A stretch of 64,000 bases of DNA from Eubacteriales bacterium (lineage in GTDB: Bacteria > Bacillota > Clostridia > Oscillospirales > CAG-382): positions 467 to 64,466 of the forward strand of contig JAZNZY010000001.1 of NCBI GenBank assembly GCA_045595165.1, read 5' to 3'. Position 1 is the first letter of the stretch, and the number at the start of each line of letters is the position of its first letter. This document shows positions 2,246-52,483 of this stretch, in pieces. The notes beneath the pieces were generated by a model. The model worked only from the letters and a program-made list of their open reading frames with translations, had not been told where the DNA came from and made no database searches. A program made the position numbers and the translations under genes.

Positions 2246-2505
2246 GGGCGCGGAGCATTTGGATGCAGAAAACATCTTTCGCGAGTGGAGAGCTGTAGTA
2301 ACCTACTGCCTCCCGAGCGAAAGTGTTTACAAAAACGCAAACAAAATAAAATTTTGGAGACGATTTTCGTCGGAAAAATTTTTACCTATTAATGTGTTAT
2401 TAAAGCGGCGGGGGCAAGCCACCCGCCCTACAAATGGAAAATAACTAAACAGAAATATTTATATATTTTTTGCGTTTTTGGGTCTGCGCCGAATGAACGC
2501 GCTCC
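2246..2505 (+). repeat. L element copy 1
   Basis: GGGCGCGGAGCATTTGGATGCAG...CTGCGCCGAATGAACGCGCTCC; internal GCTGTAG hairpin, AAAAACGCAAA/TTTGCGTTTTT helix, REP-like hairpin ending CCCTAC. Confidence 0.9.
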
Positions 2506-2511
2506 TCATAA

Positions 2512-2537
2512 AAAAACGGCGATTTCTCGCCGTTTTT
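2512..2537 (-). terminator. Intrinsic terminator
   Basis: AAAAACGGCGA-TTTC-TCGCCGTTTTT directly after the stop at 2538. Confidence 0.75.
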
Positions 2538-3398
2538 CTACTTTATATCTTCTATAACCTTTTCAGGCTTTTCATCCAAAACTTCGGGATTGGACAAAAT
2601 GGTGCGGAGGTATTTGAGCGCGGAGGCGAAATAGTGTCCGTCGCAGACGCGCTCGTCGGTAACCACGCAGTAATCCACGTACTTTCTGTCAACGGGAGAG
2701 CCGTTTTTATCCAGCTCTACCGCGCTTCTCTTTGCGCCGAAGGATATAAACAGAGGCACGTTACCGAAATTATATATATGGTGGTAAATGGGAGGAATTC
2801 CCAAAGAGCCCATAGATGTAATTATCATAGATCCGTGGAAGGGGGAAAGCTGAGAAAGCGAGCGGGGCAGCATACGGTGGTAGTCCATCTTCTTAAGCAC
2901 CCACACGGCGAATTTAAGAACAAATCTGGGAAGAGATCCGAGTATTTTTGCAACATCATCAAAGCTGCTCACCTCGTTGCGGGCGGTGTCTATCTCCTTG
3001 TTTACGATACGGTAAACGTCCTCTGCGGTGGCATCCGGCGGGAATTCCATTTTTATGACCGTATCAGGCGCATCGAGGCGCATTTCTTTTTTTATGGTCA
3101 TTGCCACCTCGATATTATTGCGGGCGTACACGCGCTGTCCCCGTACAAAGCGGTTTATTCCGGGGCGCTGGGATACGGTGCGCACGTATGCGGCAATAAG
3201 CAGATGCATTATACCGAATCCCTTTAAGCCTTCTTTTCTCTTTTTAAAAATATAATCGTCTGCTGCGGCGGTTTCGAAGCTGTCCCGTATCTGGTTGCAG
3301 GCGTCGTTGCGCTCTGCCATAATAACACATTCTATGTTCGTCATAGGGGAAATGGTCTTTAATCTTCTGCCTTCTTGCCAGGAGTGCTTTATTTCCAT
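2538..3398 (-). CDS. Stand-alone 2-oxoacid dehydrogenase E2-like acyltransferase catalytic domain protein
   Basis: GSMIITSMGSLG and DERVCDG resemble the E2 catalytic domain (TxSNxG, DHRxxDG); no lipoyl domain; GAGG SD upstream. Confidence 0.75.
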   Translation of the reverse strand: MEIKHSWQEGRRLKTISPMTNIECVIMAERNDACNQIRDSFETAAADDYIFKKRKEGLKGFGIMHLLIAAYVRTVSQRPGINRFVRGQRVYARNNIEVAMTIKKEMRLDAPDTVIKMEFPPDATAEDVYRIVNKEIDTARNEVSSFDDVAKILGSLPRFVLKFAVWVLKKMDYHRMLPRSLSQLSPFHGSMIITSMGSLGIPPIYHHIYNFGNVPLFISFGAKRSAVELDKNGSPVDRKYVDYCVVTDERVCDGHYFASALKYLRTILSNPEVLDEKPEKVIEDIK

Positions 3399-3419
3399 AG
3401 ATATACCTCACTCGTTTTT

Positions 3420-3540
3420 AATGAGAAACGAGGAATGCGGCGCGATGCAAAGCATCGCTAAATGAGGAATTTCGGAAGATTTTTGTTCTGCGAACAAAAA
3501 TCAACCGTAATTCATCATTTCTCATTCATCATTCGTCATT
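3420..3540. repeat. H element with two core hairpins
   Basis: Heptamer arm, GCGATGC-AAA-GCATCGC, GATTTTTGTTC-TGC-GAACAAAAATC, inverted heptamer arm. Confidence 0.9.
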
Positions 3541-3542
3541 TT

Positions 3543-3571
3543 ATTATACTTGTAAAATTGTAAATTGTCAA
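3543..3571 (-). promoter_or_regulatory. Consensus sigmaA promoter for the E2-like gene
   Basis: TTGACA (3571-3566)-17 bp-TATAAT (3548-3543). Confidence 0.85.
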
Positions 3572-3580
3572 CACACCGTC

Positions 3581-3609
3581 TTGATTTTTGGCTTTAACAG
3601 TGTTATAAT
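3581..3609 (+). promoter_or_regulatory. sigmaA promoter for the SBP gene (divergent)
   Basis: TTGATT-17 bp-TATAAT with extended -10 TG. Confidence 0.75.
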
Positions 3610-3653
3610 TGCTCTGTGTCAATAAAAAATTAAAAAACGGAGGAATATTTTTA

Positions 3654-5156: not shown

Positions 5157-5167
5157 AATATCGCTTC

Positions 5168-5208
5168 AAAAGCACCCCAAGAAAACTGCGTTTTCTCGGG
5201 GTGCTTTT
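5168..5208. terminator. Bidirectional terminator-like hairpin related to the C module
   Basis: AAAAGCACCCC-AAGAAAAC-TGC-GTTTTCTC-GGGGTGCTTTT after SBP stop. Confidence 0.7.
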
Positions 5209-5215
5209 GCATACA

Positions 5216-5244
5216 TTGACAAAATACCGTATATGTGTTAAAAT
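5216..5244 (+). promoter_or_regulatory. sigmaA promoter
   Basis: TTGACA-17 bp-TAAAAT with extended TG. Confidence 0.75.
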
Positions 5245-5287
5245 GCCTCTTGCGTAAGTCGGAAAAACACGTATAAAGGATTTTGTT

Positions 5288-6064: not shown

Positions 6065-6080
6065 TCACCCCGACAATCAA

Positions 6081-6106
6081 AAACCTCCGAGAAATCGGAG
6101 GTTTTC
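6081..6106 (+). terminator. Intrinsic terminator
   Basis: AAAACCTCCGA-GAAA-TCGGAGGTTTT. Confidence 0.7.
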
Positions 6107-6185
6107 CTTTTAATATTGGAGCGGAAGGGGCAAGCCCCTTACCTGCGTTGTGGGAATTTGCTAAGCAGAACAATTCACATTTTTT

Positions 6186-15874: not shown

Positions 15875-16801
15875 ATGGAAAAAATTTACCATTCGGCAGA
15901 TGCGCTGATCGGGCGCACACCGATACTTGAACTGAATAATATAAAAAAAGAATACGGGCTTGAGTGCCGTATTCTTGCAAAGCTTGAATCCTTTAACCCC
16001 GCAGGAAGCGCCAAGGACAGAGTGGCAAAATATATTCTGGACGAGGGAGAAAAGCAAGGTATAATCAATAAAAACACGGTTATTATCGAGCCTACCTCGG
16101 GCAACACGGGTATTGGTCTTGCCGCACTTTGCGCGGTGAGGGGGTATAAATGTGTTATCGTTATGCCCGAAAATATGTCGGAAGAGCGGAAAATGCTTAT
16201 ATCCGCATACGGCGCATCCCTTGTGTTGACACCCAAAAGCGAGGGGATGGACGGCGCCATAAAAAAAGCAAACGAGCTTTTGCGGGAGATCAAAAACAGT
16301 ATAATTGCCGGGCAGTTTACAAACCCCGCAAACCCCAAAGCCCATTACGAAACCACGGGCAGAGAAATATATGAAGATACCGACGGAAACGTGGATATAT
16401 TTGTCTGCGGTGTGGGCACGGGCGGTACGATAACCGGCACGGGCAAGTTTTTAAAAGAGAAAAAGGGCAATATAAAAATAGTGGCTGTTGAGCCAAGCAG
16501 ATCCCCCGTCCTCTCGGGCGGAGAAAAGGGAAGCCACGGCTTGCAGGGGATCGGCGCAGGGTTTGTCCCCGCGGTGCTGGATACCTCCGTTTACGATACG
16601 GTGCAGACCGTAACCGAGGAGGAAGCCTTTGAATGCGCACGAATGCTTGCAAAAACAGAAGGCATCTTAGCGGGAATTTCCTCGGGAGCAGCCCTCCACG
16701 CCGCGATATGCGAAGCAAAAAAGGAAGAAAATATGGGAAAAACCATAGTCGTCCTCCTTCCCGACACGGGAGAAAGATACCTCACAGCAGGACTGTTTTA
16801 A
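15875..16801 (+). CDS. cysK: Cysteine synthase A
   Basis: NPAGSAKDR (PLP Lys), [23 protein letters not shown]. Confidence 0.95.
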
Positions 16802-16886
16802 CGATGAACTATGAACTATGAACGATGAACTATGAACTATGAACTATGAACTATGGAAGTTTTTGGTCAGCAGACCAAAAACTACC
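16801..16886. repeat. H element (ACTATGA/ACGATGA arm), one arm
   Basis: About 8 tandem heptamers starting at the cysK stop, then GTTTTTGGTC-AGCA-GACCAAAAAC-TACC. Confidence 0.85.
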
Positions 16887-16923
16887 TATTAAGATCTTCA
16901 CAGCAGCAAGATAGAAGAAGGTT

Positions 16924-17172
16924 TTAAGACCGGGGATTTGGATGCAGAATGAATTTTTACGAGCGATAGCTGTAGTATTCTACAGCGAGCGAAGTAAAAA
17001 TTTATAGAAACGCGAATAAAAAGGAATTCCGTAGGCGATTTTCGTCTACGGAATTTTTACCTTATTTTGTAATTAAAGCGGCGGGGGCAAGCCACCCGCC
17101 CTACATTGGGGGATTTGCTGAACGGAACTATATATTATTCGCGTTTCGGTCTGCGCCGAATCCACGTCTTAA
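16924..17172 (+). repeat. L element copy 2
   Basis: TTAAGAC..GGATTTGGATGCAG...CTGCGCCGAATCC..GTCTTAA; same internal helices as copy 1. Confidence 0.9.
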
Positions 17173-19448
17173 AACTGGTTCTTGCGCCAGCGGAGGACAA
17201 ATACCGCAGCCCCGCCCACAACCGCCAGAGCGATTATAACCAGCGCGATTATGAGTCCCACGTTAACGGAGGAGGGAGCCTCGAACACTACGGTGAAGGT
17301 GTGATCCTTATCCATGGTTACGGTGTAAACGCCGTCCTCGGCGATATCGATCTCCTCGCCGTCAAGAGTGATCTTTCCTACAACGTATCCCTCGTTGGGA
17401 GTTACGGTGATGGTCTTTGTTTCGCCCAAAGCGACCTTGATGGTGCCGGAGGGGTCTACGGTACCGCATTCGGTGTTATAGGTTACGGTGAGAGTTGCCT
17501 TGTCCTCGGAAACCTCAACGAATACAAGGTCCTTCTGGTTGGAATAATTAACGGTTGCCCAGCCCTTTTCGTCCGCCGTAAGGGTATCGCCTATGGAATT
17601 GAGAGCGCCGGAAAGGAATTCAGCGGGAGAAAGGTCTGCGCCGGAGAATTCGTTGCCCAAGTATATCTCAAGCACGGTGCCTGCGGGGAGTGCGGGAGAA
17701 GTGCAATATACGGTTACGAAGGCGGTGGAAGGATATTCGGTGGAAACCGCATCCTGAATAGCAACGAAATTGGGGCTTCCGTTACGCATAAAATCAAAGG
17801 AAACCGTATCTCCCTCGGGGTTGAACGCACCGCCGCCGGGGATAACAAGGGAAAATTCGCTGTCGTTAATAAGAATCTTCTTTTCGGGATAATTGGAAGC
17901 GGCGCGCTGGAAAATCTCGGTAGAAACGTTGGATTTTTCGGTAACGTCGATAACGATGGTTTCTGCGGTCCAATCAATATCCTCAACGGTGATAGGCGCA
18001 TCGTTTACGGTAGCCTTCTTGAAGGTTGCGCTTATAACCATATTGGCAGATACGTTCTTAATGGTGTATTTACCGCCGGTGAGGGTTACGTCCTCGCCGT
18101 CAACGGTTACGGAATATATTTCGTATCCTTCGTTGGCGGTGATGGTGAAGGTAATATCTCCGCCCTCTTCGATCTCGTTTGCGCCTGCGGGAGTGATAGT
18201 GCCGCCGCCGGAAACGAACGCGGTTACGGTATAGAATACCTCTTCGTTTTCCTCGGTGGAACGGAAGGTTGCGGAAACGGTTGCCGCAGTATCGGTACAT
18301 TCTATGGTATATTCGTTATCCTCGTTAAGCTTTACGGTCTTGCCGCTTACCTTAACGGTGTTGAGCTCGTAATTAACGTGGGGCTCGAAAACGAGAGTGA
18401 TGCTTTCACCAACGGGAACGTATATGTACTTTTTGCTCTCGATCTCGTACAGCTCGTCCTTTACGGTGATAGAGCCGCCGTTGCCGACAGAAAGGGTGAT
18501 CTTGCAGTAATCAACCTTTTCCTTGAAGGTTACGGAAACGGTAATATCTCCCTCGGGAGTGAAGGTGTACTGGTTGTCTTCGATCTCTACGGCTTCTTCG
18601 TTTACAAGCACTTCGTCAACCTCATAGCCTTCATCGGGAACGAAGGTGAGGGTGGAATTTATGCCCTGAGGAACAACGGTTTCGCCGGAAACGGAAACGC
18701 CGTTAAGCAAAACGGAGCCGTTCTCGCCAACGGTAACGGTTGCGCCGTAGGTTTCCAATGCCTCAACAACTACGAGATAACCGGTGTTCTCAACCAGCTT
18801 ATCCTCGTGAGGATTGTCGATATCCATATATCTGGTGCCGGTGAAATATCTGGTCTGCTTGATAGCATAACCGGGCTTTGCGAAAAATTCGATAGTGAAA
18901 TCGGTATTTTCCTCAAGACGTGCATTTCCGTTATAGGATTCGCCGTTAACCTTGAAGTACGCGCCGTCAACGGGAGCGCCGTCGGTATCCACGCACTCAA
19001 CGGTGATGGTGTAGGTGGTAACCTGTCTGAACGTAATTGCAACTTCGTGGTTTGCGGTTACGGTGAAGGTATATGCGCCGTCCTTTGCTTCAACAGCGGT
19101 GCCGTCCACGGTAACGGTATCTACCAGATATCCGTCATTGGAAGTAACGGTAAGAACGGCGGTATCGCCGGTAACGTAATAATATTCGTTCTTGGAGGGA
19201 CGGCTTCCCTCGGTGCTTTCAAGAGTATAATCTCCTCCCGTGCCGCAGGAAACGGTAACGGTGAGATCCTCTTTGACCGCGGGCTCGCTTACCTCGGGGA
19301 TGCTCTCCTCGGGGATGCTCTCCTCGGTTTTGGAAGTATCCTCGATCACTTCGCTTACGTCGCTGGTTTCAGCAAACGCGGCGAAGGGCACGAGCATAAG
19401 AGCTATGATTGCCGCCAGTAAAAAGGCGGTAAGTTTACGTGAAAACAT
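17169..19448 (-). CDS. Cell-surface protein with multiple InlB B-repeat-like domains and C-terminal TM anchor
   Basis: Signal peptide; about six repeats of the type (G/T)xxGx(I/V)...F.PxEGY.(V/I)..V.V(D/N)G; hydrophobic tail plus RWRKNQF. Confidence 0.8.
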   Translation of the reverse strand: MFSRKLTAFLLAAIIALMLVPFAAFAETSDVSEVIEDTSKTEESIPEESIPEVSEPAVKEDLTVTVSCGTGGDYTLESTEGSRPSKNEYYYVTGDTAVLTVTSNDGYLVDTVTVDGTAVEAKDGAYTFTVTANHEVAITFRQVTTYTITVECVDTDGAPVDGAYFKVNGESYNGNARLEENTDFTIEFFAKPGYAIKQTRYFTGTRYMDIDNPHEDKLVENTGYLVVVEALETYGATVTVGENGSVLLNGVSVSGETVVPQGINSTLTFVPDEGYEVDEVLVNEEAVEIEDNQYTFTPEGDITVSVTFKEKVDYCKITLSVGNGGSITVKDELYEIESKKYIYVPVGESITLVFEPHVNYELNTVKVSGKTVKLNEDNEYTIECTDTAATVSATFRSTEENEEVFYTVTAFVSGGGTITPAGANEIEEGGDITFTITANEGYEIYSVTVDGEDVTLTGGKYTIKNVSANMVISATFKKATVNDAPITVEDIDWTAETIVIDVTEKSNVSTEIFQRAASNYPEKKILINDSEFSLVIPGGGAFNPEGDTVSFDFMRNGSPNFVAIQDAVSTEYPSTAFVTVYCTSPALPAGTVLEIYLGNEFSGADLSPAEFLSGALNSIGDTLTADEKGWATVNYSNQKDLVFVEVSEDKATLTVTYNTECGTVDPSGTIKVALGETKTITVTPNEGYVVGKITLDGEEIDIAEDGVYTVTMDKDHTFTVVFEAPSSVNVGLIIALVIIALAVVGGAAVFVLRWRKNQF

Positions 19449-29899: not shown

Positions 29900-29955
29900 C
29901 TTAGAGATAATGAAGAAGTCTGCACACAGATAGCGGCGAAAAAATAAAAACTGAT

Positions 29956-30232
29956 GGACACGAAGCATTTGGATGCAGAAGGAACTTTTACGAGCGGGAT
30001 ATGGCACCACAAAAATGCGTGGATTTTTGGGGACCCCGTCGGGAGCTGTAGTCGACTACAGCAAGCGAAGTAAAAGTTTCTACAAAAACGCAAATTAAAC
30101 AAATTTAAAGAAATCCGACAGGATTTCTACCTAAACCATTACAGCGGACAGCCGAGGACGTCTGTCCCTACGGTTTTCGAAACATTTATGTGCATTTTGC
30201 GTTTTTGGGTCTGCGCCGAATGAGCGTGTCCC
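29956..30232 (+). repeat. L element copy 3 with nested C module (30004-30039)
   Basis: GGACACG..CATTTGG...CCGAATG..CGTGTCC; 45-bp extra segment flanked by CGGGA direct repeats. Confidence 0.9.
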
Positions 30233-30247
30233 AAAAGGAGTATTATT

Positions 30248-31864
30248 ATGTCTAAAATCAAAACACCCGTAGTTACTATAGTTATGGACGGCGTAGGCCT
30301 TTGTCCCAGAACCGAGGGCAACGCTGTTGCCGCCGCAAGCACACCTACATTGGATATGCTTATGGCGAATTACCCCACCTTTTCTCTTAAGGCTCACGGA
30401 ACGGCGGTAGGTCTTCCCTCCGATGACGATATGGGCAACAGCGAGGTTGGCCACAACGCACTGGGCGCAGGTCAGGTATTTGCTCAGGGCGCAAAGCTGG
30501 TTTCCTCCGCTATTGAGAGCGAAAAGCTGTTTAACAGCGAAAGCTGGAAAAAGGTTGTTGCCAACGTAGGCGACACCGGTTCTGTACATTTTATCGGCTT
30601 GTTTTCCGACGGTAACGTGCATTCCCACATCGACCACCTGAAGGCTATGATAGTTAGAGCCAAGGCGGACGGCGTTAAGAAGGTTCGTATACACATACTG
30701 CTTGACGGCCGCGACGTTGGCGAAACGTCCGCGCTTGAATACGTTGATCCCTTTGAAGCTTGGCTTAAAGACCTTTGCGGCGAAGGCTTCGATGCACGCA
30801 TTGCATCCGGCGGCGGAAGAATGGTTATTACCATGGACAGATACGAAGCAAACTGGTCTATGGTTGAAAAGGGCTGGCACACCCACGTGCTGGGCGAAGG
30901 AAGATATTTTGCATCCGCCCACGAGGCTGTTGTTACCTACCGCGAGGAAACCGGCAAGATCGACCAGGATCTTCCTCCCTTCGTTATTGCCGAGGAAAAT
31001 AAGCCTGTGGGAACTATCGAGGACGGGGACAGCGTAGTATTCTTTAACTTCCGCGGCGACAGAGCTATTGAAATTTCCAAGGCATTTGACGATAAGGATT
31101 TTGATAAATTCGACCGTGTGCGCGTGCCCAACGTAGTTTACGCAGGTATGCTGGAGTATGACGGCGACGCTCACGTTCCCTCGATGTATCTGGTTTCTCC
31201 TCCCGAAATTTCCAACACCATGGGTGAATACCTTGCTTCTCTGGGCGTTAACCAGTACGCGCTGAGCGAAACCCAGAAATACGGCCACGTTACCTATTTC
31301 TGGAACGGAAACAGAAGCGGAAAGTTTAACGAAGAGCTGGAAACCTACGTTGAGGTTCCCTCCGATGTGGTTCCCTTTGAGCAGCGCCCCTGGATGAAGT
31401 GCGCAGAGATCACCGATCTGCTGATCGAAGCTATCGAGAGCGGAAAATACGGTTATCTCCGTGTAAACTTCGCCGACGGCGATATGGTTGGTCACACCGG
31501 CTCCTTTGCCGCTACCAAGATATCTATGGAAGCCCTGGACCTTTGCCTTGCACGTATTCTCAAGGCAGTTGACAAGGCGGGCGCGGTGGCTGTTATTACC
31601 GCAGACCACGGCAACGCCGACGAAATGTACGAATACAACAAGAAAAAGGGCGCAGTTTCTCTTAACGAGGACGGCACTCCCAAGGCAAAGACAAGCCATA
31701 CTCTTAACCCCGTTCCCTGCATTATCTACGATAACACCGGCAGAAACGACTATGAATGTGTAGAAGGTCAGTACGGCCTTGCAAACGTAGCCGCCACGGT
31801 TGTTACGTTGCTGGGCTTTGAGCCTAAAGATATGTGGGAAAGCTCGATGATAAAGATAAAATAA
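30248..31864 (+). CDS. gpmI: 2,3-bisphosphoglycerate-independent phosphoglycerate mutase
   Basis: MDGVG, MGNSEVGH, FSDGNVHSH, NFRGDRA, ETQKYGHVT, DMVGHTG, TADHGNA. Confidence 0.97.
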   Translation: MSKIKTPVVTIVMDGVGLCPRTEGNAVAAASTPTLDMLMANYPTFSLKAHGTAVGLPSDDDMGNSEVGHNALGAGQVFAQGAKLVSSAIESEKLFNSESWKKVVANVGDTGSVHFIGLFSDGNVHSHIDHLKAMIVRAKADGVKKVRIHILLDGRDVGETSALEYVDPFEAWLKDLCGEGFDARIASGGGRMVITMDRYEANWSMVEKGWHTHVLGEGRYFASAHEAVVTYREETGKIDQDLPPFVIAEENKPVGTIEDGDSVVFFNFRGDRAIEISKAFDDKDFDKFDRVRVPNVVYAGMLEYDGDAHVPSMYLVSPPEISNTMGEYLASLGVNQYALSETQKYGHVTYFWNGNRSGKFNEELETYVEVPSDVVPFEQRPWMKCAEITDLLIEAIESGKYGYLRVNFADGDMVGHTGSFAATKISMEALDLCLARILKAVDKAGAVAVITADHGNADEMYEYNKKKGAVSLNEDGTPKAKTSHTLNPVPCIIYDNTGRNDYECVEGQYGLANVAATVVTLLGFEPKDMWESSMIKIK

Positions 31865-34648: not shown

Positions 34649-34655
34649 ATCCGAA

Positions 34656-34890
34656 GGACACGGAGCATTTGGATGCAGAAGGAATTTTCGTTAGCGGTAG
34701 CTGTAGTAAACTACAGCGAGCGACACGAAAATTTCTACAAAAACGCAAATTAAATTATTTTAAAGAAATTCTGTAAGAATTTCTACCTCTGAACCATTAG
34801 AGGCGGGCAGTCGAGGACGCCTGCCCCTACGGTTTTCGAAACATTTGAGTGAATTTTGCGTTTTTGGTTCTGCGCCGAATGAACGTGTCC
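34656..34890 (+). repeat. L element copy 4
   Basis: GGACACGGAGCATTTGG...CCGAATGAACGTGTCC; ends just before the ytfJ SD. Confidence 0.92.
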
Positions 34891-34909
34891 CCAAAAAGGA
34901 GGAAAACAT

Positions 34910-35377
34910 ATGAACGATATTCCTTTGAAGCAAGTTATAGAATCAACTTTAGCAAAAATCGGCTCGGTGGCTGACGTAAACACCGTAGTGGGCGACCCCA
35001 TTACCATTGATGGGGGTATTACTATCGTACCCTTTTCCAAGGTTTCCGTGGGATTTGCATCCGGCGGTGTGGATTACAACGGCAAAAACGAAACGGCAGA
35101 CAAGGCGCCTCATTTTGCAGGCGGAAACGGCGCGGGAGTAAGCGTTGTTCCCCTTGGATTTTTGCTTATTCAAAACGGCGAGGTGCGTATGCTTGACCTT
35201 AAGAACCCCGCCTCCTTTGAATATGCTCCTCAAGACCCCGTGAGCAAAACTATTACTGCGGTGAATTCCCTTATTGACAGAGGTCCCGAATTGGTGCTTA
35301 AGATAAAGGACATTATCGCTCAGCCCAAGGCAGAGGAAGAACCCGTAGGGGACAAAACCGAGGAAACCGCCGAATAA
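34910..35377 (+). CDS. ytfJ: GerW/YtfJ family sporulation protein
   Basis: DVNTVVGDPI, PFSKVSVGFASGG, GGNGAGVSVVPLGFL. Confidence 0.88.
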   Translation: MNDIPLKQVIESTLAKIGSVADVNTVVGDPITIDGGITIVPFSKVSVGFASGGVDYNGKNETADKAPHFAGGNGAGVSVVPLGFLLIQNGEVRMLDLKNPASFEYAPQDPVSKTITAVNSLIDRGPELVLKIKDIIAQPKAEEEPVGDKTEETAE

Positions 35378-37456: not shown

Positions 37457-39853
37457 ATGAAGTACGACTACAAACATTACGAATCCTACTGGCAAAACAA
37501 ATGGGACGAAGACAAGGTCTTTGTCTGCGATATTGACAAAAGCAAAAAGAAATTTTACGGTCTGGTAGAGTTTCCCTACCCTTCGGGTGCGGGAATGCAC
37601 GTAGGCCACATCAAGGCTTACGGCGGACTTGAGGTCATTACCCGTAAAAAGCGTATGGAGGGATACAACGTTCTGTTCCCCATAGGCTTTGATGCGTTCG
37701 GTCTTCCTACCGAAAACTACGCGATAAAGACCAACACCCACCCCAGAACCGTTACGGATAACAACATTGCAAAGTTCACCTCCCAGATGAAGCGTGTGGG
37801 CTTTGGCTTTGACTGGACGAGAGTTATCGACACCACCGAAGAGGACTACTACAAGTGGACACAGTGGATATTCCTTAAGCTGTTCGAGCACGGATACGTG
37901 TTCCGCGATAAAGCATCCGTAAACTACTGTCCCTCCTGCCGCTGTGTGCTTTCCAACGAGGACAGCCAGGGCGGTAAGTGCGACATATGCCACAGCGACG
38001 TTGTGCAGAAATCCAAGGACGTTTGGTATCTGCGCATAACCAAGTATGCGGACAAGCTGCTGCAGGGTCTTAAGGACGTGGACTATCTTCCCAACATAGT
38101 GCTCCAGCAGGAAAACTGGATCGGCAAGAGCGAGGGCGCGTTCGCATCCTTCCGGCTTAAAGAGGTTGACGAAAAGCTCCGTATCTACACCACCAGACCC
38201 GATACAATGTTCGGCGTTACCTTTATGGTTATGGCGCCCGAGCATCCTCTGATCGACAAATATGCCGAAAAGATAAACAATATGTCCGATGTTCTTGCAT
38301 ACCGCGAGGAATGTGCGAAGAAAACGGAATTCGAGCGCACACAGCTTAACAAGGATAAGACCGGTGTGCGCCTTAACGGTCTTACGGCAATAAATCCCCT
38401 TTCCGGCAAGGAAGTTCCCATATTTATTTCCGATTACGTTATGATGGGCTACGGCACCGGCGCGATTATGGCTGTTCCCGCCCACGATGACCGCGATTTT
38501 GAGTTTGCAAAGAAATTCGGCGTGGATATTATTCCCGTTATCAAGGGCGGCGACGGCGAGAGTGCCTACACCGGCGACGGAGAAATGATAAACTCCGAAT
38601 TCTTAAACGGTATTACCAATAAAAAAGAAGCAGTTTCTGCCGCCATTAAGGTTTTGGAAGAAAAAGGCCTGGGCGAGGGCGGTGTTCAGTTCAAGATGAA
38701 GGACTGGGCGTTCAACCGCCAGCGTTACTGGGGCGAGCCTATTCCCATCGTTCACTGTGAGCATTGCGGCGACGTGGCTGTGCCTTACGATGAACTTCCC
38801 CTCCGTCTGCCCGATATGGAGCAGTTCGTGCCCGGCGAAGGCGGGGAAAGCCCTCTGGCAAAGGTAGAAAGCTTTGTTAACTGCGTCTGTCCCAAGTGCG
38901 GCGCTCCCGCAAAGCGTGAAACCGACACTATGCCTCAGTGGGCAGGTTCTTCCTGGTATTTCCTCCGTTATCTTGACCCGCACAACACCGAGGAATTTTG
39001 CTCCAAAGAAGCGCTGGATTACTGGATGCCCGTAGACTGGTACAACGGCGGTATGGAGCACGTTACCAGACATATGATCTACTCCCGTTTCTGGCATCGG
39101 TTCCTTTACGATATCGGCGAAGTGAACACTGCCGAGCCTTACGCAAAGCGTACCGCTCAGGGACTTATTCTGGGTCCCGACGGAGAGAAGATGTCCAAAT
39201 CCCGCGGCAACGTGGTTGACCCCAACGAAATAGTGGACAAATTCGGCGCAGACGTTCTGCGTGTGTATATAATGTTTATGGGCGATTACGAAAAGGCATC
39301 CCCCTGGAACGATTCTTCCGTGCGCGGATGTAAGAGATTCCTTGACCGTGTGGCAGGTATGGCAGAGCTGCCCGGCTGTGCTTCCGACAGCGCATCCGAA
39401 TCCGCGCTCCATAAGCTTATCAAGAAGGTTACAAGCGATATTGACAATATGAAGTTCAACACCGCTATTGCGGCTATGATGAGCTACATTAACGGCGTGT
39501 ACGAAAAGAACGCAATAAATGGCGATGAACTCAAGATTTTTGTTAAGCTGCTCGCTCCCTTTGCACCTCACCTTGCAGAGGAAATGTGGCACGATCTTGG
39601 CGAAAATTCTTACGTTTCCCTCGCTTCTTGGCCCCTTTACGACGAGAGCAAGACCGTGGACGATACCGTTGAGATCGCGGTGCAGTTCCTGGGCAAGCTG
39701 AAGGGCACCGTAGTGGTTCCCAAGGATGCGGACGAAAACACCGCTTGGGAGATCGTGGAAAAATCCGGCGTGCTGGATCAGGCGCTGGAAGGCAAGACTA
39801 TTGTTAAAAAGATCTATGTAAAAGGACGTATATTTAACGTTGTCGCTCGGTAA
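37457..39853 (+). CDS. leuS: Leucyl-tRNA synthetase
   Basis: FPYPSGAGMHVGH (HIGH-like), editing domain with GTGAIMAVPAHD, KMSKS. Confidence 0.97.
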   Translation: MKYDYKHYESYWQNKWDEDKVFVCDIDKSKKKFYGLVEFPYPSGAGMHVGHIKAYGGLEVITRKKRMEGYNVLFPIGFDAFGLPTENYAIKTNTHPRTVTDNNIAKFTSQMKRVGFGFDWTRVIDTTEEDYYKWTQWIFLKLFEHGYVFRDKASVNYCPSCRCVLSNEDSQGGKCDICHSDVVQKSKDVWYLRITKYADKLLQGLKDVDYLPNIVLQQENWIGKSEGAFASFRLKEVDEKLRIYTTRPDTMFGVTFMVMAPEHPLIDKYAEKINNMSDVLAYREECAKKTEFERTQLNKDKTGVRLNGLTAINPLSGKEVPIFISDYVMMGYGTGAIMAVPAHDDRDFEFAKKFGVDIIPVIKGGDGESAYTGDGEMINSEFLNGITNKKEAVSAAIKVLEEKGLGEGGVQFKMKDWAFNRQRYWGEPIPIVHCEHCGDVAVPYDELPLRLPDMEQFVPGEGGESPLAKVESFVNCVCPKCGAPAKRETDTMPQWAGSSWYFLRYLDPHNTEEFCSKEALDYWMPVDWYNGGMEHVTRHMIYSRFWHRFLYDIGEVNTAEPYAKRTAQGLILGPDGEKMSKSRGNVVDPNEIVDKFGADVLRVYIMFMGDYEKASPWNDSSVRGCKRFLDRVAGMAELPGCASDSASESALHKLIKKVTSDIDNMKFNTAIAAMMSYINGVYEKNAINGDELKIFVKLLAPFAPHLAEEMWHDLGENSYVSLASWPLYDESKTVDDTVEIAVQFLGKLKGTVVVPKDADENTAWEIVEKSGVLDQALEGKTIVKKIYVKGRIFNVVAR

Positions 39854-39857
39854 AACA

Positions 39858-40040
39858 CTGTAGATCGAAACGCAAATTAAATAATCCGTAATAACAAATG
39901 CGAGGGATTTTAATTTATCTCTCGCATTTTTGTTTTCTTTATAGGTAGAAATCTGTAAACAGATTTCTTTTAATTTTGCGTTTTTGTTCTACAGCGTTTT
40001 ACCATCGCTCGTCCCTGCAGACTTTGGGTTCTACAGACGG
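39858..40040 (-). repeat. L element variant (copy 5)
   Basis: AAACGCAAATTAAA/TTTAATTTTGCGTTT helix enclosing AAATGCGAG..CTCGCATTT and AGAAATCTG-TAAA-CAGATTTCT. Confidence 0.7.
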
Positions 40041-40056: not shown

Positions 40057-40180
40057 GTAGGGAATGGGCTTGCCCATTCCGTTGTGTGCGAACAGTTTGC
40101 GGGACGTCGAGGACGACGTCCCCTACGCAGTTGCCACGGCTGTTCGATAACCGTAGGGGATGACGTCCTCGTCATCCCGC
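40057..40180. repeat. Cluster of three alternating GTAG-type REPs
   Basis: GTAGGGAATGGGC-TT-GCCCATTCC; reverse GTAGGGGACGT..ACGTCCC; GTAGGGGATGA..TCATCCC. Confidence 0.85.
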
Positions 40181-41103: not shown

Positions 41104-41267
41104 AACGAGGAACTGGGAACTAGAAACGAGAAACTATGGTTGATTTTTGTTCACAGAACAAAAATCTTCCAAAATTCCTCATTTAGCATCGCAAAGCGAT
41201 GCGTCGCATTCCCGGGGTTCCCCGAAAACGCTATGCGTTTTTGGGGTGGGTTCCTCATTCCTCATTT
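41104..41267. repeat. H element with two cores and nested C module (41211-41250)
   Basis: GATTTTTGTTC-ACA-GAACAAAAATC, GCATCGC-AAA-GCGATGC, C module inside the right arm. Confidence 0.9.
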
Positions 41268-42611: not shown

Positions 42612-42777
42612 AATGAGAAATGAGGAATGCGACGCGATGCAAAGCATCGCTAAATGAGGAATTTCGGTAGCTTTTTTGCGCCGAAGCGCAAAAAAGGTTT
42701 CCATCCCGGGGTTCCCCGAAAACGCTATGCGTTTTTGGGGTGGGTCATTTCTCATTCATCATTCCTCATTCCTCATT
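42612..42777. repeat. H element with two cores and nested C module (42705-42744)
   Basis: GCGATGC-AAA-GCATCGC, CTTTTTTGCGC-CGAA-GCGCAAAAAAG, C module identical to 41211. Confidence 0.9.
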
Positions 42778-46394: not shown

Positions 46395-46407
46395 TTTGGA
46401 GTTACTT

Positions 46408-47706: not shown

Positions 47707-49010
47707 GCAGACCTAACGTAGGTAAATCTACCTTCTTTAATAAAATAACGGGAAAGCGTATTTCCATTGTTGACGATACCCCCGGCGTTACCCGCGACAG
47801 AATATACCACGAGATCACCTGGAACGGCGTTACTATGACACTCATAGATACCGGCGGTATCGAGCCCAAGACCGATTCCAACCTTTTGCGTATGATGCGT
47901 GAGCAGGCGCAAGTGGCTATTTCCCACGCGGACGTTATAATTTTTATGTGCGAGCTTATGACGGGCGTTACCGCCAACGACCGCGATATTGCCACCATGC
48001 TTAAAAAAAGCGGAAAGCCCGTGGTGCTTTGCGTAAACAAGGTGGATTCCGTAGGTGCGCTGCCTCCCGAATTTTATGAATTTTACGAATTGGGATTTGA
48101 TGACGACCCCATCCCCCTTTCCTCCCTCCACGGAACGGGAAGCGGCGATATACTTGATAAAGTTGTGGAATATCTGCCCGACGATGCCGACGGAGCGGAA
48201 AGCGACACGGGTATAAAGGTTGCGGTCATCGGCAAGCCCAACGCAGGCAAAAGCTCTATTGTAAACCGTATTGCGGGAGAAGAGAGAGTTATCGTTTCCG
48301 ATATGCCCGGCACTACCAGAGATGCTATTGATACCTATATAGAAAACAGCTACGGAAAATACACCTTCATAGATACCGCAGGTATACGCAGAAACGCAAA
48401 AATAGAAGATGATATCGAAAGATATTCAGTTCTCCGTGCCAAGATGGCTGTAGAAAAGGCAGACGTTTGCCTGCTGATGGTGGACGCAAACGAAGGCGTT
48501 ACCGCCCAAGACGAGCGTATTGCAGGTATCGCCCACGAAAGCGGAAAGGCGTGTATTATAGTTATAAATAAATGGGACAGTATTGAAAAGGACAACGATT
48601 CCGTAAATGCGTTCCGCCGCAAGGTGTACGAAGCCCTTTCATATATGACCTACGCGCCCCTTATGTTTGTTTCCGCAAAAACGGGACAGAGGGTGGAAAA
48701 GCTGTTCCCCTTAATAAACGAGGTTTACGCCAACAGCGGAAGACGTATTACCACAGGTGTGCTTAACGATCTTCTTAACGATGCCACCAACCGTGTTCAG
48801 CCCCCCTCCGACAGAGGCAGAAGATTAAAGATATACTATATGACCCAGACGGGTGTTAATCCTCCCAACTTTGTAGTGTTTGTAAACTCCGCAGAGCTGT
48901 TCCATTTTTCATACAGAAGATATCTGGAAAACTGCCTGCGGGATGCCTTTGATTTTACCGGAACTCCCATAAGAATGACGGTAAAGCAGAAAGGAGAAAG
49001 CAATAAATGA
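47679..49010 (+). CDS. der: Ribosome biogenesis GTPase Der (EngA)
   Basis: Two GTPase domains: GRPNVGKST and GKPNAGKSS. Confidence 0.97.
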   Translation: MSKGVVAVVGRPNVGKSTFFNKITGKRISIVDDTPGVTRDRIYHEITWNGVTMTLIDTGGIEPKTDSNLLRMMREQAQVAISHADVIIFMCELMTGVTANDRDIATMLKKSGKPVVLCVNKVDSVGALPPEFYEFYELGFDDDPIPLSSLHGTGSGDILDKVVEYLPDDADGAESDTGIKVAVIGKPNAGKSSIVNRIAGEERVIVSDMPGTTRDAIDTYIENSYGKYTFIDTAGIRRNAKIEDDIERYSVLRAKMAVEKADVCLLMVDANEGVTAQDERIAGIAHESGKACIIVINKWDSIEKDNDSVNAFRRKVYEALSYMTYAPLMFVSAKTGQRVEKLFPLINEVYANSGRRITTGVLNDLLNDATNRVQPPSDRGRRLKIYYMTQTGVNPPNFVVFVNSAELFHFSYRRYLENCLRDAFDFTGTPIRMTVKQKGESNK

Positions 49011-49672
49011 TCTATCTCGTTGATCTGATGTTTATCGGAAACTATATCTTTATCCCCTTTTACGGGCAAATGATATATTTCCTCTTGTGTATGGTCTGCG
49101 GTTATCTGCTGGGAAGCATTAACACGGCGATAATCGTGAGCAAGAAAAAGTACGGAAAAGATATACGTAACTTCGGCTCGGGCAACGCGGGTCTTACCAA
49201 TATGAAGCGTGTCTACGGCTGGGGCGCCGCAGGATATACCCTCCTTGGGGATATGGGCAAGCAGGTTGCCGCTGTGGGTATCGGTATGTTTTTGGGACAC
49301 GTGCCCGGCGCATATATTGCAGGTCTGTTTTGCATTATAGGTCATATCCTCCCCTGCTGGTACGGCTTTAAGGGCGGAAAGGGCGTGCTTACCGCCGCCA
49401 CACTTATTCTGCTGCTTGACCCTATGGTGTTTGCCATCCTGCTCATAATCTGGTTTGCTGTACTGCTTCTTACCAGATACGTTTCCCTGGCTTCTATCGT
49501 AGCCGCATTCGCATATCCCGCCGCTATGTACGCAAGATATCAGGGAAAAGACCCGTTCTCCCTCATTTTCGCCCTTGTTATCGGTCTTTTTGTAATATAT
49601 ATGCACAGAAGCAATATTAAGAGATTATTCAATAACCAGGAAAGCAAGTTTACGTTTAAAAATAAAAAGTAG
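49007..49672 (+). CDS. plsY: Glycerol-3-phosphate acyltransferase PlsY
   Basis: GYLLGSI, DIRNFGSGNAGLTN, FKGGKGV, HRSNIKRL; start position uncertain. Confidence 0.93.
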   Translation: MIYLVDLMFIGNYIFIPFYGQMIYFLLCMVCGYLLGSINTAIIVSKKKYGKDIRNFGSGNAGLTNMKRVYGWGAAGYTLLGDMGKQVAAVGIGMFLGHVPGAYIAGLFCIIGHILPCWYGFKGGKGVLTAATLILLLDPMVFAILLIIWFAVLLLTRYVSLASIVAAFAYPAAMYARYQGKDPFSLIFALVIGLFVIYMHRSNIKRLFNNQESKFTFKNKK

Positions 49673-49675
49673 CGG

Positions 49676-49945
49676 GGAGCGCGTTCATTCGGCGCAGAAC
49701 CAAAAACGCAAAAGCAAGAGTAAGATATTTCGATAACCGTAGGGTACGACGTCCTCGTCGTACCGCCTCTCACAGTTTAGAGGTAGAAATTCTTACAGAA
49801 TTTCTTTAAATTTAATTTATTTGCGTTTTTGTAGAAATTTTCGCGTCGCTCGCTGTAGTTTACTACAGCTACCGCTAGCGAAAATTCCTTCTGCATCCAA
49901 ATGCTCCGCGCCCTTCAGACTTTCTGCGCTACAGACGTTACATAT
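49676..49945 (-). repeat. L element copy 6 (inverted) with left extension
   Basis: GGAGCGCGTTCATTCGGCGCAG...CTGCATCCAAATGCTCCGCGCCC; extension matches 2217-2245. Confidence 0.92.
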
Positions 49946-50039
49946 CAAAAATTTAACTTAAAATCCGCGTACAGCGGATTTTTACCGAACCTTTTCACTC
50001 TTCACTTTTCACTCTTAACTTTTTATAGGGGTATATACT

Positions 50040-51278
50040 ATGCCACTTGCCGATTCCATCCGCCCCACGACCCTTGCCGAAATGGCAGGTCAGGAGCATT
50101 TATTACAAAACGGCGCCCCGTTGCGCCGCATATTGGAAAGCGGACATTTGCCCTCCATGATATTTTACGGTCCCCCCGGCACGGGAAAGACCACCCTTGC
50201 AAATATCGCGGCGAAATTGACCGAAAAACAGATTTTCCGCATAAACGCCACCACTGCATCTCTTTCCGACGTAAAAGAGGTTTTACAGGAAACGGACAGT
50301 CTGTTTTCCGCAGGGGGAATACTGCTGTATATCGATGAAATTCAGTATTTCAACAAAAAGCAGCAGCAGGCGCTCCTCGAATACGTGGAGGACGGCAGAG
50401 TTACCCTTATTTGCTCCACCACCGAAAACCCCTATTTCGCCCTGTACGGCGCGTTACTTTCCAGAAGCACGGTTTTTGAATTCAAGCCCGTGTCCCCAAA
50501 GGAATGTCTTAAAACCTTAAAGCGGGGTCTTGAAGCGCTTAACGAGCAAACGAACGGTAACAAAAAGTGCGATGACGCCTTGCTTTTGGATATTGCATCC
50601 GGTTGCGGCGGGGACGTGAGAAAATCTCTTACCGCGCTTGAAAACCTGTATTACGCCAGCGTGGGCGACGAGATCGAAAAGGATTTTGCAAACAGCCTCA
50701 TTCAGAGAAGCGGTATGCGGTTTGACGTTAGCGGCGACGTGCATTACGATATCCTTTCCGCATTCCAGAAATCTATTCGCGGCAGCGACGAAAACGCCGC
50801 TGTCCATTACCTTGCCCGTCTTCTTGCGGGAGGAGATCTCCTTTCCCCCTGCAGACGTCTGCTGGTTATCGCCAGCGAGGATATAGGACTTGCCTACCCT
50901 CAGGCGGTGAGTATGGTAAAAGCCTGCGTGGATTCAGCCCTTCACCTCGGTCTGCCCGAAGCGGGACTCCCTCTGGCTGAGGCTACCATTCTTCTTGCCA
51001 CCGCGCCAAAGAGTAATTCCGCATCTGCCGCATATTGGGCGGCGATGGAGGACGTGGAAAACGGACTTGCCGTTTCTGTTCCCTCTCATTTGCAGGATAC
51101 CCATTATTCCGGCGCGAAAAAATTGGGCAGAGGCGGATATAAATATCCCCACGCATATCCCAATAACTTCGTGGAACAGCAGTACCTGCCCGACGAACTG
51201 AAGGACAAGGTGTACTACGTACCGGGAACCAATAAGACCGAGCAAGCCATGAAGGAATATTGGTTAAAAGTAAAATGA
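50040..51278 (+). CDS. rarA: Replication-associated recombination protein A (RarA/MgsA)
   Basis: PLADSIRP, GPPGTGKTT, IDEIQYFNK, AFQKSIRGSD, ASEDIGLA. Confidence 0.95.
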   Translation: MPLADSIRPTTLAEMAGQEHLLQNGAPLRRILESGHLPSMIFYGPPGTGKTTLANIAAKLTEKQIFRINATTASLSDVKEVLQETDSLFSAGGILLYIDEIQYFNKKQQQALLEYVEDGRVTLICSTTENPYFALYGALLSRSTVFEFKPVSPKECLKTLKRGLEALNEQTNGNKKCDDALLLDIASGCGGDVRKSLTALENLYYASVGDEIEKDFANSLIQRSGMRFDVSGDVHYDILSAFQKSIRGSDENAAVHYLARLLAGGDLLSPCRRLLVIASEDIGLAYPQAVSMVKACVDSALHLGLPEAGLPLAEATILLATAPKSNSASAAYWAAMEDVENGLAVSVPSHLQDTHYSGAKKLGRGGYKYPHAYPNNFVEQQYLPDELKDKVYYVPGTNKTEQAMKEYWLKVK

Positions 51279-51394
51279 GGAATGCGGAATGCGACGCGAT
51301 GCAAAGCATCGCTAAATGAGGAATTTCGGAAGATTTTTGTTCACAGAACAAAAATCAACCATCATTTCTCATTCATCATTCATCATTCCTCATT
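51274..51394. repeat. H element with two cores
   Basis: Near-identical to 3420-3540; supplies the rarA stop. Confidence 0.9.
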
Positions 51395-51401
51395 AAAAAA
51401 T

Positions 51402-51428
51402 AAAATCCCGTGGTGTCCACGGGATTTT
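51402..51428. terminator. Bidirectional terminator (same family as 40255)
   Basis: AAAATCCCGTGG-TGT-CCACGGGATTTT. Confidence 0.75.
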
Positions 51429-51442
51429 GTTTTTGCAAAAAA

Positions 51443-51706
51443 TTATTCAGCGGTTTCTTCCTTGATCATCTTGGGGATACCCATATCGATGGTGCCGAGC
51501 TGAGCCTGGAATTCTTCTTCGGTCATCTGAAGAACCTTGATGCCCTGGATGATACCCATGATACCGTTAATGGTAGCCATAACGCCGAAGGTTACGCAGG
51601 AAAGAACGATTCTGATAACGCCTGCCTTGGTTTGGCCCTGAATGAAGCAGGGAACGCCGTATGCGTTGAACAGAATGGTAAGAATACCGAAAAGTGTCTT
51701 GTTCAT
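51443..51706 (-). CDS. Small TM2-like membrane protein
   Basis: AGGAG SD; LFNAYGVPCFIQGQTKAGVIRI followed by a TM helix, resembling the TM2 pattern. Confidence 0.65.
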   Translation of the reverse strand: MNKTLFGILTILFNAYGVPCFIQGQTKAGVIRIVLSCVTFGVMATINGIMGIIQGIKVLQMTEEEFQAQLGTIDMGIPKMIKEETAE

Positions 51707-51859
51707 AATATGTACTCCTTAATAAATTTACTGTGAATATATTATATATTTAAATGTATAAAATGTCAATATTATTTTAAATTTGTTTTTGTTGCTTTTT
51801 GTTATTCTGCGTGGTATAATTAAACGTTAAAATATATTCTTATCCGGAGAATAGAAGCT

Positions 51860-52246
51860 ATGACAAGACGTGAATCCCGCGAGGCGGCTCTTTGCCTCAT
51901 TTACGAGCAGACTTTTTCCCCCGAAATAAGCACCGACGAGATTATTGAAAAAGCAAGGGAGATCCGCGAAGAGAAGGTTTCGGATTTTGCCGCCACCCTC
52001 TTTAACGGTGTTTGCCAGAATACCCAAAACCTTGACCTGCGTATTTCTGCCGCGGCGGAAAAATGGTCGCTGGACAGAATTTCCCGCGTTTCCCTTTCCG
52101 TACTGCGCCTCGCCGCATACGAGATAATATATCTGGGCACCGAGAAGCAGATCGCCGTTAACGAAGCATTGGAGCTGGCGAGAAAATATGATGATGAGAA
52201 AGCGGTAAGCTTTATTAATGGAGTACTTGCAGGCATAATAAATTAG
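51860..52246 (+). CDS. nusB: Transcription antitermination factor NusB
   Basis: TRRESREAA, WSLDRIS, AVNEALELA, FINGVL. Confidence 0.95.
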   Translation: MTRRESREAALCLIYEQTFSPEISTDEIIEKAREIREEKVSDFAATLFNGVCQNTQNLDLRISAAAEKWSLDRISRVSLSVLRLAAYEIIYLGTEKQIAVNEALELARKYDDEKAVSFINGVLAGIIN

Positions 52247-52483
52247 GACATCCTCATTCGGCGCAGAACCAAAAACGCAAAAGCAAGAGTAAAATGTTTC
52301 GATAACCGTAGGGACAGACGTCCTCGGCTGTCCGCCTCTATTAGTTCAGAGGTAGAAATTCTTACAGAATTTCCTTATATTTTATTTATTTTGCGTTTTT
52401 GTAGAAATTTTCGCGTCGCTCGCTGTAGTTTACTACAGCTACCGCTAACGAAAATTTCTTCTGCATCCAAATGAGTTAGTCCT
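52245..52483 (-). repeat. L element copy 7 (inverted)
   Basis: AGGAC-ATC-CTCATTCGG...CCAAATGAG-TTA-GTCCT. Confidence 0.92.

Follow-up and report, generated by a model that had tools for sequence, protein, structure and literature searches.

What kind of element is L, a sequence of about 240 nt that recurs in a 64,000-nt stretch of an Eubacteriales genome with termini that pair with each other within a copy and differ from copy to copy? This stretch (assembly GCA_045595165.1, contig JAZNZY010000001.1, positions 467 to 64,466 of the forward strand) is referred to as the window, and the genome containing it as G000. An earlier reading made from the letters alone (the sequence-only reading) listed six copies of L and described them as a folded mobile element or structured RNA. 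All six are present where it placed them, and a covariance model built from 26 genomic L copies raises the number in the window to eight by adding copies 7 and 8 (Table 1). The terminal pairs that it quoted (GCGCG/CGCGC, TTAAGAC..GGATT/AATCC..GTCTTAA, GGACACG/CGTGTCC and AGGAC..CTCATT/AATGAG..GTCCT) are all present, as are its inner helices, of which TTTTCAG/CTGAAAA belongs to the added copy 7. The results suggest, with a probability of about 0.6, that L is a mosaic, palindromic DNA cassette located at gene ends in an uncultured gut Clostridia lineage (Oscillospirales-type metagenome-assembled genomes), similar to repetitive extragenic palindromic (REP) sequences and bacterial interspersed mosaic elements (BIMEs). 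L is a previously undescribed variant among REP/BIME-type repeats, not a new class of RNA gene. Its placement at stop codons, its strand-specific terminator-like hairpin and its GTAG-tagged, REP-like modules are new with respect to the sequence-only reading.

The fold of L was derived with RNAalifold from the copies in the window and from single-sequence folds of about 30 copies. In the common fold, a closing stem composed of a variable helix P1 followed by P2 and P3 surrounds a long hairpin P4, with the apex GCTGTAG-N4-CTACAGC, and a second long-range helix P5 (CAAAAACGCAAA with TTTGCGTTTTTG), which encloses two or three exchangeable hairpins, P6, P7 and P8. The same architecture is obtained for nearly every copy folded singly, at about −76 to −132 kcal/mol. 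The closing stems fall into class A (CATTTGGATGCAGAA / TTCTGCGCCGAATG), class B (CTGTATAAACAAAGCAGAA / TCTGCGAAGTTTAGACAG) and class C (GGTAAAACGCTGTAGAA / TTCTACAGTGTTTTACC), which differ in sequence and are equal in pairing. P2 and P3 form inverted ends that are conserved within each class and differ between the classes with compensation, the outer P1 varies, and a purine-rich 3x2 internal loop (GAG/AA) is conserved between P1 and P2. Distant copies retain the pairing of P1-P3 with unrelated sequences. The claim that each copy has its own complementary termini holds for the copies with P1, but not for class C (including copy 8), which lacks the P1 helix and has a direct repeat, GAGCGA, on both sides instead. 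The contrast drawn with the terminal inverted repeats of ordinary miniature inverted-repeat transposable elements (MITEs) is likewise valid only in part: pairing rather than sequence is conserved in L, but the P2/P3 sequence is conserved within the subclasses, and an identical P1 (GGGCGCG/CGCGCTC) recurs at three unrelated loci. This recurrence indicates that P1 can travel with the element.

That L is a folded repeated element conserved in pairing over sequence is borne out by the consensus fold, by shuffled and slid controls and by a comparison of cognate arms. When seven copies are analysed with RNAalifold, 16 of 62 pairs have both sides changed. When 46 copies from several genera are aligned, by fitting to the covariance model and therefore with a bias towards structure, 96.9% of the cells are paired, as compared with 78.4% in shuffles and 38-48% when the partner columns are slid; double changes are detected in 26 of the 32 pairs and in 12 of 12 P4 pairs. 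For the outermost 15 nt, compared in 49 distinct copies, pairing is at −12.0 kcal/mol with the cognate arm and at −6.7 kcal/mol with non-cognate arms (permutation p < 1e-4). Compensation is also seen at single sites. P1 of the ytfI-ytfJ site is GGACACG/CGTGTCC in G000 and GAACGCG/CGCGTTC in the related species G007, with two changes, both compensated, and the non-coding portion of P1 at the copy 2 site varies among species with an opposite arm that always matches. Between G000 and G003, the copy 4 orthologues have 93% identity (97% at paired and 83% at unpaired positions), as compared with 61% identity at the four-fold degenerate sites of the flanking gene. This result indicates either selection or a recent shared origin.

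The stop codon of a convergent open reading frame (ORF) is located 10-33 nt past the start of P3' in 22 of 33 copies of the same genome and 39 of 47 copies of other species, most often at +24, which falls inside or just beyond P1'. The 3' end of about three quarters of the copies is on, or a few bases from, the stop codon of the convergent gene. Two sense copies, 3 and 4, directly precede gpmI and a ytfJ-like gene, respectively, the antisense copies 5 and 6 each separate a pair of co-directional genes, and most of the remaining copies are oriented against a convergent gene. At copy 2, the convergent gene ends within P1 (GTTTTAAGAC/GTCTTAAAAC), which covers its final Phe codon and its TAA stop (17169-17171). 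The C-terminus encoded there, RWRKNQF directly before the stop, is kept in nine genomes of the genus, including the L-free genome G001, and L adjoins or overlaps the stop in all seven L-bearing species with a match at this site. At copy 6, the nusB stop TAG (52244-52246) lies within the P1 arm AGGAC, and the corresponding spacer of G001 is 5 nt long. At copy 8, a leuS-like gene takes its final codons and its stop from the end of the element (GTCGCTCGGTAA), and the element is located between this stop and the old terminator of that gene. A fixed target tetranucleotide at the insertion point was considered and rejected, because the enrichment of GTAA/GTAG is only modest (16 of 60 points, against a background of 13.7%) and many other contexts occur. 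The sense copies of class A share a terminal CCAAAAAGGAG right upstream of the start codon (34890-34910 and 30232-30250 in the window, and the gpmI leaders of G008 and G002), and L may in this way carry its own Shine-Dalgarno sequence.

The interior of L contains terminator-like signals, and these are strand-specific. Of 81 copies, 71 have a hairpin with a U-tract directly behind it on the antisense strand, as compared with 8 that have one on the sense strand. Antisense P6 has a median stability of −10.7 kcal/mol and is followed at once by at least 6 U in 9 nt in 66 of 87 copies. The direction of the antisense hairpin and U-tract is that in which the convergent gene is transcribed, and both P6 (55092-55116) and P8 (55140-55168) of copy 7 score as terminators on the − strand. 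Antisense P6 looks like a putative intrinsic terminator, in that its hairpin passes directly into a U-rich tract and is co-directional with the gene ending there, but it differs from one in that it sits in a much larger conserved fold. Because these signals are inside the element on the antisense strand, a transcript stopping at them would end before the closing stem can form. Termination at P6 would leave one strand of P5 and of P1-P3 out of the transcript, so that the closing helices would exist only in read-through RNA or in single-stranded DNA (ssDNA). The hairpins are also tagged. The sense-strand sequence CTAC, which is GTAG on the antisense strand, follows P6 in 67, P8 in 31 and P4 in 27 of 81 copies; the GTAG in the apical hairpin of P4 lies within the stem and is paired.

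The sites occupied by L are polymorphic between closely related species. L is detected in eight of nine genomes (species) of the genus, each with more than 20 BLAST matches, and in none of the G001 sequence examined. A syntenic 80-kb region of G001 (C18:50001-130000) has 0 L copies, 0 heptamer arrays and 0 C modules, as compared with 8, 18 and 2 in the window. (C modules are described below; heptamer arrays belong to H elements, small hairpins such as GGTAGTTTTTTGCG..CGCAAAAAACC between inverted runs of 7-nt units, AATGAGG / CCTCATT and variants.) Upstream of gpmI, L is present in G000 and G008 with identical P1 and different interiors, H is present in G004, a short hairpin with P1 and a P2-like stem only is present in G002 (C11), and neither is present in G007 and G001. 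In the ytfI-ytfJ spacer, L is present in G000, G003 and G007, H in G008, G004, G002 and G006, and neither in G001; a BLAST match to L in G009 ends just upstream of its own ytfJ. The flanks of copies 4, 5 and 6 are 90-97% identical between G000 and G006, and G006 carries H cassettes at these three sites; homology is lost exactly at the stop codon and is found again from the ribosome-binding site on. Even between these two genomes, the interior of L at the copy 2 site differs (70% identity), and near-identical cores are found in unrelated contexts with different P1, indicating that the interiors are mosaic. An origin of P1 from pre-existing terminator hairpins is rejected, because the element-free sites of G001 and G007 have no such palindrome and identical P1 helices occur at unrelated loci.

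By the genes that flank L, G000 belongs with uncultured Clostridia/Oscillospiraceae-type metagenome-assembled genomes from ruminant and other animal guts. Outside the genus, L is patchily distributed. Full-length but weaker relatives are detected with the covariance model in 42 of the 151 genomes of the family and in 6 of its 15 genera. Of the 138 genera of the order, 6 carry L, with a patchy occurrence in three other families. G317, from another family, has the strongest copies beyond the genus: seven that score 51-99 bits, of which six reach at least 70 bits. No L is present at any of the gpmI loci of 80 more distant relatives. This patchy distribution fits horizontal spread. A profile search of all contigs of the 2.05-Mb assembly of G000 gives 59 matches, of which 37 are strong and about 10 are partial copies, concentrated on contigs C1, C21, C14, C15 and C5, with none on several large contigs. 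For example, there are 11 matches on C1 (74 kb) and about 17 on C21 (177 kb), and 0 on C17 (113 kb) and C20 (147 kb). The GC content of the contigs ranges from 0.415 to 0.479, and the uneven spread could represent either regional clustering or a mixed bin. No near-identical pair of copies is found within the genome and no recent burst is visible, so that no recent transposition is evident.

The known elements to which L is most similar are REPs and BIMEs. In the BIMEs of E. coli, REP units alternate in orientation and are linked into a mosaic by conserved motifs. Repeats of the REP superfamily, including REP doublets (REPINs), are accompanied in the same genome by a gene for a REP-associated tyrosine transposase (RAYT, a Y1 HUH transposase), which is typically flanked by REPs. 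L shares with them a high copy number of extragenic palindromes, hairpins started by GTAG (antisense P6, P8 and P4), subfamilies with alternative complementary residues in the stem, and mosaic mixing with other repeat motifs. L also shares with them the location downstream of ORFs, in convergent and co-directional gaps, with ends that overlap or supply stop codons. A unit of the GTAG superfamily of REPs is 20-40 bp long, with an unpaired GTAG-like tag at its end, a stem of 5-13 bp and a short loop (PMC3733652). REPs have been reported downstream of ORFs, between convergent genes and as a source of stop codons (PMC3733652, Di Nocera, De Gregorio and Rocco 2013), and this survey mentions no Firmicutes. 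The description of a REP unit fits the sub-modules of L only, the whole L being about 240 nt. L further differs from REPs and BIMEs in its occurrence in a Firmicute, in its built-in, strand-specific hairpin and U-tract, and in that no RAYT is detected.

L is also similar to structured MITE-like repeats, which are non-coding sequences of 100-300 bp with inverted ends and stable RNA or DNA folds, of which BOX is modular. They are located near or in gene ends and can affect transcription and mRNA stability. Size, lack of coding capacity, inverted ends, stable fold, modular build and location at gene ends are all shared by L. However, L is multi-branched whereas these repeats form a single long hairpin, the outermost helix of L is copy-specific and compensated, and neither a target-site duplication nor a parent insertion sequence (IS) is found for L. 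The repeats of this type (Correia/NEMIS, ERIC, pneumococcal BOX/RUP/SPRITE and Bacillus cereus bcr) are reviewed in PMC3184786.

According to the REP/BIME-like reading, L would be spread or exchanged as DNA, either by some enzyme or by homologous replacement of whole spacers. Once placed, it would form the 3' untranslated region and intrinsic terminator of its neighbour and an insulator between convergent or adjacent genes. Judged from its sequence, L probably acts as a terminator and insulator. Two processes, alone or together, would keep the long-range helices complementary: selection on the single strand in its folded state (read-through RNA or ssDNA) and replication template-switching within the quasi-palindrome. 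Either process would give each copy its own matching termini.

Several observations weigh against this reading. L is far larger and more ordered than a REP, with two long-range helices, and it has conserved linkers like a BIME, but its P4, P6 and P8 are in the same orientation. PF01797 (Y1/RAYT) is detected neither in G000 (97% complete) nor in six of the eight L-bearing species of the genus. The PF01797 matches in G006 and G007 are of the IS200 type, with no L or GTAG hairpin within 1.5 kb, and a REPIN system driven by a RAYT is therefore rejected. A DUF559/Vsr-like nuclease is likewise rejected as a partner, since none of the L-bearing genomes tested has one and its occurrence is confined to L-free genera. 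No transposase or recombinase for L is found in searches with PF01797 and DUF559, none of which was directed at integrases, and neither a coding relative nor a parent insertion sequence of L is found. The target duplications that the sequence-only reading had in view do not appear: none is found at the borders of L in comparisons of filled with other sites, which include no clean filled/empty pair with exact borders; the single direct repeat observed is a 34-nt duplication of the leader at a tandem pair of copies (described below). The terminator role is itself a prediction, the P6 stems are AU-rich unlike those of an intrinsic terminator, and the strength of the terminators is only weakly linked to the gene context (p = 0.07, not significant). 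The sense strand is the more stable one in 51 of 63 copies. Its fold is the better one also in 43 of 60 copies whose antisense strand would be the one present in the neighbouring mRNA. This better fold and the conserved GAG/AA loop hint at a function of the sense-strand RNA or ssDNA beyond the terminator model.

The first alternative is that the complementarity of the arms is a mutational by-product, in which template switching or hairpin-templated repair rewrites the arms and extends the palindrome into the flank without selection on the fold. This is rather improbable as a full account. The sequence-only reading had named hairpin-templated repair as an alternative, and it remains a live explanation for the lasting match of the arms. 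The near arm of copy 2 is constrained coding sequence (Phe and stop, kept in G001) and the far arm matches it as if copied; P1 of copy 6 contains a stop codon and one of its arms also looks copied. That perfect stems and seemingly compensatory changes can arise by template switching has been documented (PMC8794818 and PMC5453318). G-U pairs are equally frequent on both strands (4.5 each), which makes them weak evidence for selection on one particular strand. As the sole cause, however, templated copying is opposed by the asymmetric loop, which persists in different forms (GAG/AA, AAG/AG, AGG/AAC) next to differing P1 helices and would be erased by copying. P1 is limited to 5-10 bp instead of growing without limit, and P1 of class B differs between copies at only two or three positions, with compensation in every case, as in ordinary compensated substitution. 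L at an orthologous locus is, moreover, far better conserved than neutral sites, and templated copying accounts for the match of the arms, not for the site or the cargo of L.

The second alternative is that L copies are independently expressed genes for a structured small RNA of about 240 nt, made from the sense strand and acting in trans or as a protein scaffold, with a promoter or processing signal in the sequence that precedes them. This sequence, the leader motif CGTCTGTAG-N5-AAAGTCTGA, is found 5' of most copies of classes B and C and some of class A. It occurs 17 times in the genome, and 14-15 of these occurrences are immediately 5' of L, as a processing or promoter signal might be. Because it directly precedes L, the variable 5' arm of P1 lies between conserved sequences of the element and is not simply flanking DNA. 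The strong covariation in all helices, also across genera, the more stable sense strand, including that of copies with a convergent neighbour, the conserved unpaired junctions and purine-rich internal loop, and the conservation of the copy 4 orthologue well above neutral sites are also what an RNA gene would show. G-U pairs exceed A-C mismatches by about 2:1 in comparable contexts, among copies that are phylogenetically non-independent; this asymmetry is consistent with an RNA, and as a pointer to the functional strand it was discarded as weak and confounded by shared ancestry.

An RNA gene is nevertheless quite unlikely. The leader has no TATAAT-like −10 element with T at position 6 and no acceptable spacing, no sigma-70 promoter is predicted in it, and the class A copies inside operons have no leader. 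A GAAAC..CGTC promoter of the extracytoplasmic function (ECF) type is rejected by inspection, because its spacing is wrong, and the leader fits, by inspection, no sporulation or ECF sigma consensus spacing known to us. There is no terminator past P1', and what directly follows L is the coding region of a convergent gene or a ribosome-binding site. A trans-acting RNA gene would not be expected in about 40 diverged copies per genome, with interiors exchanged among them and with H in their place in sister species, and G001, a viable close relative with no copies in the sequence examined, is in part an instance of loss. The sequence-only reading had left room for a known RNA family; Rfam gives no match in the whole window at the gathering threshold, the best E-value being 0.86 (copy 4, permissive filters). 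Of its proposal of a folded mobile element or structured RNA, the folded, multi-copy repeat with polymorphic sites stands, and a discrete structured RNA is the less likely part, in view of the terminator-like signals in its antisense interior.

Another possibility, and a very doubtful one, is that the variable 5' arm, which in the long form lies between the leader and P2, is an adaptor whose sequence is set to match the final codons and the stop codon of the neighbouring gene. L would then be a programmable gene-end device defined by its structure. It would be either an ssDNA element that targets gene ends and is inserted or exchanged without a RAYT, or else an RNA switch that a terminating ribosome opens.

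It is most improbable that L, H and C belong to a structure-specific recombination system of the integron attC type, in which a recombinase recognises the folded single strand and exchanges intergenic cassettes at gene ends. An attC site is 57-141 nt long, has conserved outer R boxes and a variable centre, is recognised as a folded single strand, and lies beside an integrase and promoterless cassettes. The conservation of structure over sequence in copies with their own complementary arms, the exchange of stop-to-ribosome-binding-site spacers between close species, the co-presence or co-absence of L, H and C, the nesting of C in L with a 5-bp direct repeat, and the patchy occurrence across families are all consistent with such a system. 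However, the variable part of L is outermost and the conserved part innermost, which is the reverse of attC, the flanking genes are by inspection housekeeping genes (gpmI, mutS-like, nusB, leuS-like) rather than promoterless cassettes, no recombinase gene is linked to any copy (no integrase-directed search was made), and homologous recombination in flanks that are 90-97% identical suffices for the swapping of spacer alleles. A riboswitch or other 5'-leader regulator is dismissed, because L has unrelated genes as neighbours and is found within operons both in the sense (copies 3 and 4) and in the antisense orientation (copies 5 and 6). The sequence-only reading had already argued against a riboswitch from the two orientations.

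Other repeats accompany L. In sister species, H elements occupy the same intergenic sites as L and begin right after the stop codon; about 18 heptamer arrays are found in the window. The C module is a 45-nt mini-hairpin of the type GGGGACCCC..AAAACGC..GCGTTTTTGGGGTG, which is nested in P4 or P8 of some L copies and is also found in H. The C module of copy 3 is bounded by a 5-bp direct repeat, CGGGA, which resembles a target-site duplication. GTAG-tagged hairpins are also present outside any L (GTAGGGAATGGGCTTGCCCATTCC, and an inverted pair, GGGACGTCGAGGACGACGTCCCCTAC ... GTAGGGGATGACGTCCTCGTCATCCC, that resembles a REP doublet and is thus REPIN-like). In G000, a tandem pair of L copies (C21:82850-83750) is present where G006 (C3) has a single copy, and the extra copy is flanked by a 34-nt direct repeat, GTCCTACCTTCTCCTGTTTTATATATCAAAAACC, which consists of the leader and the P1 arm. 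The hairpin upstream of gpmI in G002 is 39 nt long (GGCACGGAG-CCTTCGG-AACACCA-CCGAAAG-AACGTGTCC) and contains P1, the GAG/AA loop and a P2-like stem without an interior; it could be an excision footprint or a minimal ancestral L. G001, with very short spacers (for example the 5 nt between nusB and xseA) and an apparently higher GC content, is a natural repeat-free control genome. The coordinates of these features in the window are summarized in Table 1.

Table 1. Positions of L copies, parts of the copy 4 fold and accompanying repeats in the window
Feature	Position	Strand	Remarks
L copy 1	2243-2509	+	long form, class A; P1 GCGCG/CGCGC
L copy 1 leader motif	2222-2241		CGTCTGTAG-N5-AAAGTTTGA
L copy 2	16922-17176	+	P1 GTTTTAAGAC/GTCTTAAAAC; convergent gene 17169..19448(-)
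L copy 3	29953-30236	+	gpmI leader; last base 3 nt upstream of AGGAG Shine-Dalgarno
L copy 4	34653-34895	+	sense, ytfI-like/ytfJ-like spacer; fold exemplar
L copy 5	49672-49916	-	antisense between two + strand genes; leader motif 49918-49937
Copy 5 neighbour gene	49007..49672		stop TAG 5 nt from P1'
L copy 6	52241-52486	-	antisense between nusB-like and xseA-like genes
L copy 7	54985-55224	+	class B, long form; leader motif 54955-54975
Copy 7 neighbour gene	55222..55863	-	convergent; stop TTA(rc) immediately beyond P1'
L copy 8	39838-40014	-	short, class C; absent from the sequence-only list
Copy 4 P1, 5' strand	34656-34662	+	GGACACG, then loop GAG
Copy 4 P2, 5' strand	34666-34672	+	CATTTGG, then bulged A
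Copy 4 P3, 5' strand	34674-34679	+	TGCAGA
Copy 4 P4 hairpin	34680-34738	+	apical GCTGTAG-TAAA-CTACAGC 34700-34717; CTAC 34735-34738
Copy 4 P5 region	34738-34866	+	CAAAAACGCAAA 34738-34749 pairs with TTTGCGTTTTTG 34855-34866
Copy 4 P6	34764-34784	+	followed by CTAC
Copy 4 P7	34786-34803	+	
Copy 4 P8	about 34804-34827	+	followed by CTAC
Copy 4 3' closing strand	34869-34890	+	P3' 34869-34874, P2' 34875-34881, loop AA, P1' 34884-34890 (CGTGTCC)
Copy 4 downstream signals	34897-34910	+	Shine-Dalgarno 34897-34902; ATG 34910
H elements	2137-62850		e.g. 2137-2206, 16800-16881, 51301-51394, 62748-62855
C modules	about 30000-30044, 41210-41251, 42704-42745		first one in copy 3
GTAG-tagged hairpins outside L	about 40057-40180		

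REP/BIME repeats are textbook elements in Proteobacteria and, to our knowledge, are barely described in Firmicutes, and their function and mode of spread are debated. In the uncultured ruminant and hindgut Clostridia studied here, many stop-to-ribosome-binding-site spacers are filled with L, H and C, an ordered repertoire of folded cassettes, and no RAYT is recognisable. Among these cassettes, L is the most elaborate, with a 240-nt multi-helix fold, a strand-specific terminator signal and a closing helix that may include the stop codon of the neighbouring gene. Covariation-based screens of gut metagenomes will misread such elements as novel structured RNAs. If the adaptor interpretation were true, an unknown structure-guided mechanism would be involved, and its RNA-switch version would couple the termination of translation to the termination of transcription or to the stability of the mRNA 3' end. 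If L functions as a terminator and insulator, it would be a portable form of gene-end punctuation.

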